Below are positions 56,787 through 62,180 of a stretch of DNA of 64,000 nucleotides, piece after piece. How positions within the stretch are numbered: the stretch's first letter is position 1; every line of letters begins with the position of its first letter. The translations under genes and the position numbers were made by a program. The notes beneath the pieces are model-generated. The model searched no databases. It saw only the letters and a program-made list of their open reading frames with translations, and was not told where the DNA came from. Source of the DNA: Candidatus Moraniibacteriota bacterium (GTDB taxonomy: Bacteria; Patescibacteriota; Minisyncoccia; Moranbacterales; JAPLXC01); NCBI GenBank assembly GCA_026396275.1, contig JAPLXC010000005.1, positions 1,615 to 65,614 on the forward strand. The letters run 5' to 3'.

Positions 56787-56982
56787 CACCAAGATTGTAA
56801 GTTCAGATCAAAATTTGAACTTCAAATTTATTTTAAGTAACTGCTAACTGCTAACTTGAAAAACGAGAAAGGTTTAATAGTTTATTAGTACTTCTTGGCT
56901 GAATCCCTCTCGGGACTTACACCTGAAGCCTATCAACCTCGTCTTCTTCGAGGAAACCATACCGCGCACAGCGCGGAAGTTC

Positions 56983-57113
56983 AAATTTCAAAGCTCAAAT
57001 TTTCCCGCCAAAGCGAGATCCCGCCGTGGCGGTGGCAAATCAATTTCAAATGGCTAAATTTCAAAAAAATTTTGTCATTTGGATTTTGGGCTTGATTTGT
57101 CATTTGGATTTTT
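56983..57113 (-). repeat. AT-rich TIR element (copy C) at the helix-98-equivalent variable site of 23S
   Basis: Its reverse complement aligns with copies A and B. Flanked by duplicated CGUGCGCAGCACG-like hairpins. Confidence 0.5.
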
Positions 57114-57273
57114 GATTTTGACATTCCGTGCTGCGCACGACAGTTGCCTAATCTTGGGGTGAGCTTCCCGCTTAGATGCTTTCAGCGGTTATCTCGTCCG
57201 AACATAGCTACTCGGCGTTGCTCCTGGCGGAACAGCCGATACACCAGAGGTTCGTTCTTCTCGGTCCTCTCGT

Positions 57274-58042
57274 CACATATTCCCTTATTTCTAAGAGTGT
57301 AGACTATATCTTCATCCCCGATGGACATCGAGGAGCCGACGTGTTATAGCAACACATTTCCATATATTTTCCGTTGCTATCCTATCCCGCCTTGGCGGGA
57401 TAAAGTCGTTACGGGGTCAATCCTAAAATTTTTAGCAATTTTCTTTTGGTTCTTTTTTTCTTAGTAACATAATTTTCTTTCTGAATTTTCATCACGCAAT
57501 TAATAAGTTTAATGTAATCCTTCTTTTCAAGGTTCTTTTTACTAAGAATTTTTATAGCTTTTAATATTTCTTGGCACTGGATCTTTTTGAATTTAATAAA
57601 TGGCTTTAGTTTTTCGAGAATACTTTTTGCCTTATTATAGCCATTAATTCGTAGTTCGGTTATGCTATCATTTCTTCTGGAAATATAACCAATGCCGATT
57701 TTTTTCCTAATCCAGTACAAGGGTTTTTCGTGGCGCGAATCCTGATAAAAGCAAATAGTAACCATGAAGCGGCTTTTTCCATTGTCGCTTCGTTTTTTTA
57801 TTTGCAACATTAAGCTTCCATCGCCATCAAGAAAACCTGCAATATAAGCTAAATTAATTTTAGAACGACTTCCCACGGTATTATCTTAATTATTTATCCG
57901 GTCCTCAAGTAACTTTATCATATCACAAAATTCGCTGGACCGCAAATCATTTTGTGATCCCACAAACCGGAAAATAAATGAAGACTTCACCGTTATTAGT
58001 CGGATTTTCAATTCCGCTTGCGCGGAAAAGTAGCAATCTTCT
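57274..58042 (-). mobile_element. group-I-like intron in 23S rRNA at the sarcin-ricin loop (between E. coli U2656/A2657 equivalents), encodes a LAGLIDADG endonuclease
   Basis: Exon junction reconstructs CUCUAGU|ACGAGAGGACC. 5' exon ends in U and the intron ends in G. Shares blocks (AUCCGACUAAUAACGGUGAAG, AUACCGUGGGAAGUC) with the intron at 59118..59358. Confidence 0.7.
57409..57876 (-). CDS. LAGLIDADG-family homing endonuclease (intron-encoded)
   Basis: LAYIAGFLDGDGS motif near the N-terminus. 155 aa, single-motif type, inside intron A. Confidence 0.8.
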   Translation of the reverse strand: MGSRSKINLAYIAGFLDGDGSLMLQIKKRSDNGKSRFMVTICFYQDSRHEKPLYWIRKKIGIGYISRRNDSITELRINGYNKAKSILEKLKPFIKFKKIQCQEILKAIKILSKKNLEKKDYIKLINCVMKIQKENYVTKKKRTKRKLLKILGLTP

Positions 58043-58105
58043 TACTAGAGAAGACTCCCCTCAAGCAACAACGCCTACGGCAGATAGAGACCAACCTGTC
58101 TCACG

Positions 58106-58389: not shown

Positions 58390-59117
58390 ACGGTTTGAAC
58401 CCAGCTCGCGTACCGCTTTAATTGGCGAACAGCCAAACCCTTGGGAGCTTCTCCACCCCCAGGATGCGATGAGCCGACATCGAGGTGCCAAACTCCTCCG
58501 TCGATATGGACTCTTGGGAGGAATAAGCCTGTTATCCCCGGGGTAACTTTTATCTGATGATCTTCCACCCTCCTATGAGGGATGGTCGGTTCACTAAATT
58601 CCACTTTCGTGACTGATTGACTTATGGGTCTTTCAGTAAAGCTGGCTTGTGCTTTTGCGCTACCGGCCCGATTTCCATCCGGACCTAGCCAACCTTAGTA
58701 AACGCCTCCGTTGCATTTTGGGAGGCGACCGCCCCAGTCAAACTACCCGCCAGGCACTGTTCCCAACCCGGTACCAATAACCAACAACTTACAACTCACA
58801 ACTAAAATAACATTAAAAGAAATGTTATCAGTTGTTTGTTATCAGTTAGTCATTAGTAACGGGTTAGGGTTAGAACTAAAACTTCAGCAGGGTGGTATTC
58901 CACTGTTGCCTCCATCCCGACCAGAATCGGGACTTCATCGGCTCCCACCTAAGCTCGGCAGCTAAAACTCTAATCCAATGCCAAGTTGTAGTAAAGCTCC
59001 ACGGGGTCTTTTCGTCTTGCCGTAGGTCGACGGCATCTTTACCGTCATTGCGATTTCACCGGGTCCTTCGTCGAGACAGTTACCAAGTCGTTACGCCTTT
59101 GATGCGGGTCAGAATTT

Positions 59118-59358
59118 CATTTTTGCTGTTTTGCTTTCGCAAACAATAGACTATATCTTCACCCCGATATTATATCGGGGGCCGACGTGTTACCCACAAT
59201 AATTGTGAGTCCAGATTAAATAAATAATCTGAGTCGTTACGGGGTCACTAGGACTTCCCACGGTATTACCATATCCTTCAAGGACTTAGGCTTCACCGTT
59301 ATTAGTCGGATTGCTCATGCCGCATTGCTGCGGCATTCAGGCAAATGTCTGACACTTT
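59118..59358 (-). mobile_element. group-I-like intron in 23S rRNA near E. coli position 1951 (CCUUGUCAGGU|AAAUUCUGACC)
   Basis: A 241-nt insertion. 5' exon ends in U and the intron ends in G. Homologous to intron A. No ORF. Confidence 0.65.
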
Positions 59359-59778
59359 ACCTGACAAGGAATTTCGCTACCTTAGGACGATTATAGTTAT
59401 CGCCGACGTTCACTGGCGCTTCGGGAACAAGCTTTCACCCGCTCCGTTAACGTTCCAGCACTGGTCAGGCGTCAGCCCCTATACTTCCCCTTGCGGGTTT
59501 GCAGAGACCTGTGTTTTTGGTAAACAGTCGCCTGGTAAACTTTCGCTGCGTCCCGCCCTTTTGGACTAAAATTTTAAGGCTTCATGAATTTTATTTTCAC
59601 AAGCTTAAAATTCATTCCCAAAAGGGCGGGAAAGACATTTCGCGAACTTACGTCTAGTTTTTTTGCCGAGTTCCTTAACGAAGGTTCTCCCGTTCACCTT
59701 GGGCTACTCGCCCAGTCCACCTGTGTCGGTTTTCGGTACGGACGCTGTTAGATTCGCTCGTATCGCGCTTCGCGCGAT

Positions 59779-59925
59779 ACATCGCTAAATTCAAAAATCA
59801 AAGTGCAAAATGCAAAATTAAGGAACTCGCTACACTCGTAATTTTTTATATTTTAAATATAAAATAATCAGTCGCGAAACGACACCAAAATTTTGATTTT
59901 TGATTTTTGCATTTTGAATTTGAGT
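59779..59925. repeat. AT-rich family-2 inverted-repeat element inside a 23S variable region (domain III)
   Basis: Arms CAAAAATCAAAGTGCAAAATGCAAAA / TTTTGATTTTTGATTTTTGCATTTTG, like 16187..16382. Confidence 0.45.
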
Positions 59926-62180
59926 GAGTATCACACGAAAGGTGATACGAACGACATAGAGGTTTTTCCTGGTAGCGCGCTCGTTCAGCTTCCCCTGATA
60001 AAATCAGAGTTCGCCGCGTTTCTTGAAGTAATGCCCTGCGGATTTGCCTGCAGAGCCCTCTTAAAACGCGGACGTTAATCCAATAAATCGCCTGAATTAC
60101 TGCACTACGTCACCTCATTTATAAACTAATAGCGGTGCCGGAATATTAACCGGCTGTCCATCGACTACGCCTTTCGGCCTCGCCTTAGGACCGACTAACC
60201 CTGGGATGATCGTCATTGCCCAGGAAACCTTGGACTTGCGGTGTGCCGGGTTTTCACCGGCATTGTGGTTACTCATGCCAACATTCTCACTTCCATAAAC
60301 TCCAGTCCGACTCACATCGAACCTTTGCTGCTTATGGAACGCTCTCCTACCGCCAATGCAAAGCATTGGCCCATATCTTCGGTACCATGTTTAGCCCCGT
60401 TACATTTTCGGCGCGAATCTTCTGGTCTAGTGAGCTGTTACGCACTCTTTAAAGGGTGGCTGCCTCTAAGCCAACCTCCTAGATGTATAAGAAAATTCAC
60501 TTCCTTTCCCACTTAACATGGATTTAGGGACCTTAGATGATGATTTGGGCTGTTTCCCTTTTGAGATCCGACCTTAGCGCCGGATTTCTGACTGCCTCGG
60601 TAAATATCGCAAGAATTCGGAGTTTGGTTGAGAACCCTGCGGCGAACCGCGAGTCCTCATTCAGTAGCTCTACCTCTTGGATACAATGTCGAGACGCTAG
60701 CCCTCAAGCTATTTCGGAGAGAACCAGCTATTGCCAAGCTCGGTTGGAATTTCTCCTCTACACACAAGTCATCTCCCAGTTTTGCACGGCTGGTGAGTGC
60801 GGGCCTCCCCCCGATTTTACTCGGGGTTCACCCTGCTCATGTGTAGCTCGCCTGGCTTCGGGTCTAGTCCGCGCGACACGCCTTGTACCACAATGGTACA
60901 AGGCAAAGCCCATTTAAGGCTCGCTTTCACTGTGCATATCCTCCAAAGGAGTTTATACAAGTCACGCAAAACTAACTCGTTGGCTCGTTCTACAAAAAGC
61001 ACGCAGTCACCCCGACTTGCGTCGGGGCTCCTACTCTTCGTTTGCATATGGTTTCAGGTTCTATTTCATCTCCCTCACCGGGATACTTTTCACCTTTCCC
61101 TCACGGTACTTGTTCACTATCGATCTCGCACAATATTTAGCCTTGGAAGATTAGTGCTCCCAGATTCAGACGGGATTTCTCCGGTCCCGCCCTACTTGAG
61201 AATAATAACCGTAAAGATGTTTTCTTTTTATGTACAGGGCTATTACCTTCTATGGCCGCTCTTTCCAGAGACGTTCTATTAAAAAAACATTTTATAACTC
61301 TACCTCCGCAGAATGTAACACGTTGAGAAAAATCTCAAGATGTTACAAACTCGGAGCGTTACCATCCCGCAACGCCGCAATCACCAAAGTAATTACGGTT
61401 TTGGCTTTTCCCCTTTCGCTCGCCACTACTTGGGGAATCACTATTGTTTTCTTTTCCTCCTGGTACTAAGATGTTTCAATTCCCAGGGTGCGCCATACGC
61501 ACCTATGAATTCAGCGCGTATTAATCCCGCCGAGGCGGGATTGGATTGCTCCATTCGGATATCCCCGGATCAAAGCTTGCTTGGCAGCTCCCCGAGGCTT
61601 ATCGCAGCCTGCTACGTCCTTCATCGCTTGTACGAGTCAAGGCATCCACCATATGCATGAGTAAACCTTTCTCTTTGTTAGCAGTTAGCAATTACTTAAC
61701 TTTAGCTAACTTTTTCTTAATTTACGACCTACTTAAAACTTACCACTTTTCACTGACTCATCTTTCCGCAAAACGCGAACAAGCCAATGACAGTTGGTTA
61801 AGACCTATTCAGTTTTCAAGGAGCGATTACTGCGGAAATAAATTAGAACAATATTATTCAAACTTATTTCAACACTAATCATCAACCTGTCACCCACTCA
61901 CCAGTTTCGAAAGCATTCTGGTGATTTCCTAAAACTGGATACACAGTCGCGCCTTCGGCTTGATCTGAAAAAATATTAAATATTGATAAAAACTGGTGAG
62001 GGATTTGTTTCTCTTATCAAAATCAAAGATTTTGAAGAGAAACAAAAAACCGCTTGTTCGGCGGGCTGTCTCCTCAAGAACAACTTAAAAATAAAGAATT
62101 TACCCGCTTCTTTTTCCAATATGCTTTTTTCGAATTGTCTTTACTATATGTTTGAAAAAATAATTAGTTAGTCAGTTTTC

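Follow-up and report, generated by a model that had tools for sequence, protein, structure and literature searches.

In bacteria, group I introns of the 23S ribosomal RNA (rRNA) gene are known from domain IV, where those of Coxiella burnetii, Thermotoga and Simkania are inserted at L1917, L1931 or L1951 and some of them carry LAGLIDADG genes. L1951 is an established insertion site. These cases are sporadic, with one or two introns each, unlike the 23S rRNA gene described here, which is found on the minus strand of a 64,000-nucleotide (nt) stretch of contig JAPLXC010000005.1 of a Candidatus Moraniibacteriota bacterium (the window; positions are counted from its first letter) and contains three, referred to as introns A (L1951), B (L2593) and C (L2656). 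At L2593, the chloroplast 23S rRNA gene of Chlamydomonas reinhardtii contains the Cr.LSU intron, of which the P6 loop holds the open reading frame (ORF) of the homing endonuclease I-CreI. Intron B is at the identical site, but is without an ORF. The I-CreI-like ORF of the window is instead in intron C, which interrupts the sarcin-ricin loop (SRL). The enzyme that it encodes is a full-length, single-motif homolog of I-CreI, and its ORF is likewise in a P6 loop.

The closest described systems are the 23S rRNA introns of the Candidate Phyla Radiation (CPR). In the survey of Tsurumaki et al. (2024; PMC11270868), 82% of 348 CPR 23S rRNA genes contained insertions and 45% of the insertions were assigned to group I by Rfam. 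ORFs of the LAGLIDADG_1 family predominated at positions 1917, 1931, 1952, 2593, 2604 and 2657 (23IS6–8 and 23IS12–14), and group I introns at 23IS14 (position 2657) were unreported in other bacteria according to the same paper. Moreover, I-ShaI, a CPR LAGLIDADG enzyme from 23IS7 (position 1931), cleaves its own target and dimerises (PMC11270868).

Our results showed that the window very probably contains the single 23S-5S rRNA locus of a CPR bacterium near Candidatus Moranbacteria with spliceable group I introns at L1951, L2593 and L2656, the last of which carries a homing-type enzyme. The locus is similar to the CPR classes 23IS8 (1952), 23IS12 (2593) and 23IS14 (2657) in phylum, in the three positions (within ±1 nt), in group I character, in the predominance of single-domain LAGLIDADG_1 ORFs and in having several insertions per gene. 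Its sites, U1951, U2593 and U2656, match the published ones, and the one-base offsets are of the size of the junction ambiguity of alignment-based insertion calls, an ambiguity to which the survey itself refers (PMC11270868). Different from this study, the survey makes no mention of the SRL and gives no RNA structures for these introns, and the enzyme tested there, I-ShaI, is from another site, while the enzyme of the window is a further sequence whose best match is 87% identical. 23IS14 or position 2657 was not found in the supplement of PMC11270868, and literature searches with "L2656", with 2656 and group I intron, or with sarcin-ricin loop, group I intron and homing endonuclease returned nothing relevant. 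An earlier note on this DNA, made from the sequence alone, had called the SRL an unusual insertion site. This is right for classical bacteria and organelles, but in Patescibacteria the site is a recurrent and published hot spot. Thus, a three-intron 23S rRNA gene with an SRL intron is a further case of a class already described in CPR, and a claim of novelty fails. For the field, one more intron-rich Patescibacteria 23S rRNA gene changes little; what the locus supplies are exact splice junctions and guide sequences for three sites.

Insertion Sites and Splice Junctions

Junction searches and an alignment to Escherichia coli rrlH (locus L001), which served as the BLAST reference and for numbering and was covered from E. 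coli position 23 to 2888, identified three insertions, each in universally conserved 23S sequence (Table 1). All three are preceded by a U that, as read from the sequence, can form a U-G wobble with a G of the internal guide sequence in P1, and the terminal nucleotide of all three is G (omega-G). Judged by the letters alone, the junctions could slide by up to 3 nt in intron A, where AAA is found on both sides, and by 1 nt in intron C. The positions of both are fixed by the group I rule, under which U precedes the intron and G is its final base.

Most of what the earlier note had described was found again. The three group-I-like introns that it proposed were borne out by Rfam for introns A and B and by homology and covariation for intron C. 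The junction strings that it quoted are present exactly, its coordinates and E. coli numbering are right by the alignment to rrlH, and the junction rule, with U ending the 5' exon and G ending the intron, holds at all three sites; it was silent on the minus strand. Its lengths of 241 and 284 nt stand, but the SRL insert is 770 nt long and not 769 nt. It had assigned a LAGLIDADG protein to the SRL intron only, and the ORF of this protein is the sole sense ORF of at least 60 amino acid residues (aa) in the insertions, with a Pfam LAGLIDADG_1 match.

Table 1. Features of the 23S-5S rRNA locus in the window. A slash marks an intron insertion point.
Feature	Coordinates	Strand	Description
23S rRNA gene including introns	56865..61672	-	Rfam LSU_rRNA_bacteria, 2132–2140 bits, from 61672 downwards; BLAST to E. 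coli rrlH
23S exons	61672–59359; 59117–58390; 58105–58044; 57273 to ~56865	-	
Intron A (L1951)	59118..59358	-	241 nt, between U1951 and A1952; ORF-less group I
Intron A internal guide sequence	59337..59346	-	AUUU (P10, with 3' exon AAAU), then GCCUGA (P1, with 5' exon UCAGGU)
Intron B (L2593, I-CreI site)	58106..58389	-	284 nt, between U2593 and C2594; ORF-less group I
Intron B internal guide sequence	58295..58302	-	CAUG (P10, with 3' exon CGUG), then GCGG (P1, with CCGU; U2593 to G); directly 5' of P2
Intron B anti-exon element	58325..58337	-	ACUGUUUGAACCC, complementary to 5' exon GGGUUCAAACCGU (58402–58390)
Intron C (L2656)	57274..58043	-	770 nt, between U2656 and A2657 inside the SRL sequence AGUACGAGAGGACC
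Intron C internal guide sequence	58031..58036	-	UUGCUA, pairs with exon UAGU and intron AA; U2656 to G
Single-motif LAGLIDADG homing endonuclease gene (predicted)	57409..57876	-	155 aa; GUG start in P4'/P6 strand, UAA stop in J6/7
P6/P6a/P6b 5' strand	57856..57873	-	Also encodes endonuclease residues 2–7; pairs with 57429–57413; covariation
P6b/P6a/P6 3' strand	57413..57429	-	Also encodes the last endonuclease residues, ILGLTP; covariation
Predicted exon joins, introns removed			A, CAGGU/AAAUUC; B, ACCGU/CGUGAG; C, CUAGU/ACGAGAGG
Intron-less target around the L2656 insertion site			TCTTCTCTAGT/ACGAGAGGACC
Intron-less SRL-region duplex			GGGGAGTCTTCTCTAGTACGAGAGGACCGAGAAGAACG
5S rRNA gene, downstream of 23S	56686..56793	-	Rfam 5S_rRNA, 57.4 bits
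AT-rich long hairpin insertions	61270–61402; 59741–60134 (hairpin 59768–59940); 59532–59660; 58772–58858; 56950–57147	-	Minimum free energy folds with z of -5 to -8

Group I Features of the Three Introns

With the Rfam model RF00028 (Intron_gpI; gathering score, 50 bits), intron A scored 52.0 bits and intron B 61.0 bits on 58316–58115, both above the gathering score. In the Rfam alignment of intron A, P1 is formed by exon UCAGGU plus intron AAA with UUUGCCUGA, and U1951 is paired to G. The minimum free energy (MFE) fold of intron A with 10 exon bases recovered P1, P2, P4, P5, P6, P7.1, P7.2 and P8 (z = -5.85). P7.1 and P7.2 are two hairpins between P7 and P3', which is an IA-type feature. The folding of intron B gave z = -7.83, and this intron possesses a 5' extension of ~90 nt ahead of its guide sequence. 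The guide motif CA[CU]GGCGG was found in 37 of 41 L2593 introns of related loci.

Introns A and B correspond precisely to introns of relatives that carry an ORF, except that short hairpins stand where the genes would be. For instance, the L1951 introns of the related loci L002 and L015 are 712 nt long, and their P8 loop contains another LAGLIDADG gene, with the motif GFIDGEG. Similarly, the L2593 introns of L007 and L009 are 708 nt long with a LAGLIDADG gene in the P6 loop, and intron B aligns end to end with that of L007, in which the ORF encodes 148 aa. Introns A and B thus appear to be ORF-less derivatives of introns with endonuclease genes in related genomes. Homing endonuclease genes usually pass through a cycle of gain and loss, into which the two ORF-less introns fit.

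Intron C has an extended P5 domain (~100 nt), P7.1 and P7.2, and the ORF in its P6 loop. For comparison, 77 L2656 introns were gathered from other genomes, and 67 distinct ORF-stripped cores were aligned. Compensatory changes were found in P2, P3, P4, P6a, P6b and P9, with almost no non-canonical cells, and P7 (GACU/AGUC), the helix of the guanosine-binding site, was invariant. Helix support was counted pair by pair for named helices, as RNAalifold cannot draw the pseudoknot of P3 and P7 and misdrew P7; covariation was judged for P2, P3, P4, P6a/b, P7 and P9, the alignment being poor at P7.1, P7.2 and P8. Of the 109 positions at which the other L2656 introns show at least 95% conservation, intron C retains 108. 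Moreover, the guide stretch UGCUACU was invariant or nearly so among the 67 cores, and the resolved L2656 introns all begin with A and end with G (72 of 72 ending in G among the genome loci). Based on these signatures, all three insertions are assigned to the group I introns.

The LAGLIDADG Endonuclease of Intron C

The 155-aa product of the ORF in intron C matched Pfam PF00961 (LAGLIDADG_1) with 38.3 bits, for which the cut-off is 23.1, and its LAGLIDADG motif is LAYIAGFLDGDGS. A profile built from the ORF and 17 homologs matched I-CreI, I-MsoI and I-CvuI over their full lengths (E = 1e-15 to 1e-17). D19, Q45 and K97 were invariant in the family alignment and aligned with D20, Q47 and K98 of I-CreI; by the roles of the I-CreI residues, we take Q45, K97 and the acidic motif residue D19 to be of the catalytic type. 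The AlphaFold2 model of the protein had a predicted local distance difference test score of 90.4 and the element order H-E-E-H-E-E-H, i.e., an alpha-beta-beta-alpha-beta-beta-alpha fold. In Foldseek searches, the model matched the same three enzymes, which are thus its closest solved relatives in sequence as well as in fold, with template modeling (TM) scores of 0.75–0.85 (E = 1e-11 to 1e-12); against I-CreI, the TM score was 0.82–0.85 at 28% identity. The ORF is thus predicted to encode an intact I-CreI-type LAGLIDADG enzyme, which is expected to be a homodimer because each chain has one motif. Given that the host intron is at L2656 and not at L2593, its DNA target must differ from that of I-CreI. 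Well conserved, and with the SRL DNA, a universally conserved sequence, as its predicted natural target, the enzyme could interest meganuclease engineers.

Different from I-CreI, the ends of the ORF overlap and form the P6 helix. Codons 2–7 (GGA AGU CGU UCU AAA AUU) pair with the last codons (AUU UUA GGA UUG ACC CCG). The near-invariance of the C-terminal LTP and of the stop codon is explained by their second role as P6' and J6/7, and base pairing in the RNA likewise accounts for the covariation across orthologs of residue 7 (I/T) with residue 149 (I/V) and of N6 with M149.

Distribution of the Sarcin-Ricin Loop Intron

The endonuclease had 3108 homologs at E ≤ 1e-5. The best 120 of them were 63–87% identical to it, and almost all of these were 155–159 aa long. 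In all six distinct loci obtained by protein look-up, the ORF was in an insertion that ended in G directly before ACGAGAGGACC. In a genome scan with one genome per species, a relative of the endonuclease was found in at least 554 species-representative genomes, of which the best 80 loci were examined. All taxon-labelled loci among these 80 were Patescibacteria, with labels that included Moranbacteria, Jorgensen-, Terry-, Nomura-, Taylor-, Harrison-, Colwell-, Lipton- and Blackburnbacteria and others, plus Saccharibacteria-labelled entries. The SRL-site junctions were resolved in 72 of the 80, and the intron lengths ranged from 724 to 912 nt. Among a set of 88 related loci (86 fetched and two unlabelled metagenome contigs), 78 had the same endonuclease within an SRL-site intron, and every locus with a taxon label belonged to Patescibacteria. 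Moreover, 23S rRNA genes with an SRL intron usually hold further introns at L1917–1931, L1951 and L2593. An apparent ORF-less SRL intron of 238 nt in locus L039 was rejected as an artefact of the 5'-junction search.

The Anti-Exon Element of L2593 Introns

The L2593 introns contain a conserved 13-nt element in a long P1 loop, with the consensus ACAGUCUGAAUCC, which is complementary to exon positions 2581–2593 and is referred to here as the anti-exon. It is shared by L007, L017, L070, L072, L034, L049 and L087, among others, and pairs with the exon at 11 or more of the 13 positions in 34 of the 41 L2593 introns. The two sides covary: A or G at exon position 2588 is accompanied by U or C in the element, and C or U at 2586 by G or A. 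In the MFE fold of intron B, the anti-exon helix is formed and P1 is not, and the splice-site U is paired as U-A. The helix opens with U2593-A and G2592-C and has a mismatched or bulged base at the equivalent of A2602, and thus begins like the native helix-93 pairing. With G-U pairs allowed, a shuffle control was too permissive, so that the case for the anti-exon is based on the conservation of the motif and its covariation with the exon variants.

The anti-exon may be a splicing switch or a surrogate of helix 93. No description of it was found in a minimal literature check, and the element may be new. Both the anti-exon helix and the endonuclease termini that double as P6 are within reach of simple splicing assays.

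Proposed Splicing and Homing, and Alternative Explanations

With the insertion positions, the group I signatures, the family and fold of the enzyme and its distribution as given above, splicing, endonuclease activity and homing can be proposed as follows. The 23S-5S precursor would be transcribed, and each intron would fold into a group I core and dock its short P1, in which the exon-final U meets the guide G. An exogenous guanosine would then attack after U1951, U2593 or U2656, and the freed exon would attack after the terminal G, by which the exons would be ligated. At L2656, where the SRL itself is broken, religation would be indispensable. Either the precursor or the excised intron would serve as the messenger for the endonuclease. 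As a homodimeric enzyme of the I-CreI type, it would cut an incoming intron-less 23S rRNA gene at the pseudo-palindromic SRL sequence, and repair would copy the intron in. The steps after folding are proposed by analogy with studied group I and LAGLIDADG systems.

Several observations weigh against this proposal. Intron C alone scored only 25.3 bits on RF00028 (E = 0.002, 3' part), far below the gathering score, which is ascribed to the 468-nt ORF and the P5 extension that split the model match. P10 is not evident for intron C and its P1 is short (6 bp), while P1 of the L2593 intron has only 4 bp and competes with the much longer anti-exon helix. In addition, no obvious ribosome-binding site was seen at the GUG start of the endonuclease ORF, and the intron-less target is palindromic about the insertion site at 7 of 11 positions, a weak signal given that ~25 axes were tried.

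If the three insertions were RNase III-type intervening sequences, they would be excised without religation and the 23S rRNA would be fragmented. Intervening sequences of this type are known in bacterial 23S rRNA genes and have been suspected to underlie those short insertions of CPR that are not introns (PMC11270868), and the same 23S rRNA gene holds five long AT-rich hairpin insertions that resemble them. The three insertions, however, have a group I core, guide sequences and a terminal G and are without a single long terminal stem. Moreover, the SRL would be destroyed if the strand were nicked between U2656 and A2657, and a break at 2593 would fall in helix 93 beside the peptidyl-transferase ring. 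Excision of this type is scarcely credible here. It is also very unlikely that the introns are decaying relics, which no longer self-splice or home and either require host factors or are tolerated in an rRNA copy without function. Two of the three introns have lost their endonuclease genes, the P1 helices are very short and a second rRNA operon could be located beyond the 64-kb window. Against decay, the core positions are conserved and the helices covary, which points to selection on structure; the endonuclease is of full length and keeps all family-invariant residues; the rest of the 23S rRNA gene scores as a normal bacterial large subunit rRNA; and CPR genomes usually carry one rRNA copy (PMC11270868). 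A group II intron, an IStron and a twintron were rejected, as there were no such Rfam matches and no reverse transcriptase or TnpB ORF.

Another explanation concerns the origin of the introns. The earlier note had reported long identical blocks shared by the L1951 and SRL introns and called the two paralogous. The blocks (22, 17, 15, 12 and 15 nt) are real. J3/4-P4, P4'-P6, P6'-J6/7-P7, P3' and J8/7-P7' are identical between the two, and the ORF-stripped core of intron C is 77% identical to intron A over 219 aligned positions. These comparisons were made with ORF-stripped pairwise alignments, as a three-way MAFFT alignment was misled by the ORF. A recent duplication or transposition of the L1951 intron into the SRL, or the reverse, would explain such blocks, and the core identity of intron A does not separate the classes, as it is 0.77 to intron C and 0.74 to the L1951 introns elsewhere. 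The 22-nt P3-J3/4-P4 block, AATCCGACTAATAACGGTGAAG, is identical in both introns of the window (59337–59358 versus 58000–58043), whereas 3–5 of its positions are changed in L1951 introns from other genomes. Nevertheless, a recent duplication is most improbable. The SRL intron of the window is clearly nearest to the SRL introns elsewhere (0.77–0.83 identity over ~305 positions), with intron A in 78th place of 82; intron A has P1, P2 and P9 in common with the L1951 introns of L002 and L007; and the P3 form of the 22-nt block is the common SRL-intron form in the clade. The endonuclease genes also differ in sequence and loop, as they are in P8 in the L1951 introns and in P6 in the L2656 and L2593 introns, and L2656 introns that contain this ORF occur across many CPR lineages. 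Finally, L002, L015 and L007 have TAATACCGTGGGAAGTC and GACCCCGTAACGACT without change in their L1951 introns, and in the 67 SRL-site introns both are at least 95% conserved at nearly every position; the blocks are shared because they belong to the conserved catalytic core of one intron family. Introns A and C are thus best read as old lineages of one ribozyme family, each bound to its own site and each having acquired its endonuclease gene separately. The paralogy holds at the level of the intron family, but there is no sign of a recent duplication and each intron looks orthologous to the introns of its own site. The identical 22-nt block could reflect local gene conversion between introns A and C in this lineage, or coincidence. 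Homogenisation of L1951 and L2656 introns within a genome was unsupported in L002 and L015, where the P3 helices differ.

It is unlikely, though worth stating, that the introns are not just selfish elements but are tied to the maturation of the ribosome. In such a coupling, the anti-exon of the L2593 intron could sequester the 5' splice site in a helix over the peptidyl-transferase ring nucleotides 2581–2588, the exchange of which for the 4-bp P1 would have to precede splicing, and it could thus act as a switch that times splicing to large-subunit assembly. Similarly, the SRL intron could hold the GTPase-activating loop unformed until late. According to the abstract of PMC12641178, Patescibacteria are without about half of the usual ribosome biogenesis factors.

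The 23S-5S rRNA Locus and Its Host

The Rfam large subunit rRNA match ends near 58062–58333 because of the insertions, and BLAST carries the homology on to E. coli position 2888. This shows why rRNA annotation fails here, as the Rfam match stops at introns. The 3' end of the 23S rRNA gene (~56865) was extrapolated from E. coli position 2888, which corresponds to 56880. An Rfam scan found no 16S rRNA gene in the 64-kb window, and the rRNA arrangement is thus unlinked. On the 3' side of the 5S rRNA gene are genes for a 270-aa hypothetical protein, FtsW/RodA and ribosomal protein L25, an order that is common to several metagenome-assembled genomes (MAGs) of Moranbacteria and Parcubacteria, among them three of the loci with the nearest 23S exons. 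The nearest 23S exons, which are ~90% identical, are from Moranbacteria and Parcubacteria MAGs, and so are the nearest endonucleases. GCA_041645535.1 is one of the close relatives. From the exon similarity and the synteny downstream of 5S, the host is placed as a Patescibacteria genome near Moranbacteria.

Relative to E. coli, the 23S rRNA gene also contains five further, non-intron insertions, at about E. coli positions 268–304, 1404–1600, 1679–1770, 2210 and 2782–2819. They showed no group I signature, and in Rfam they gave only weak miRNA-like chance matches. These hairpin insertions are most likely expansion segments or intervening sequences of the RNase III type, which have been described for CPR.

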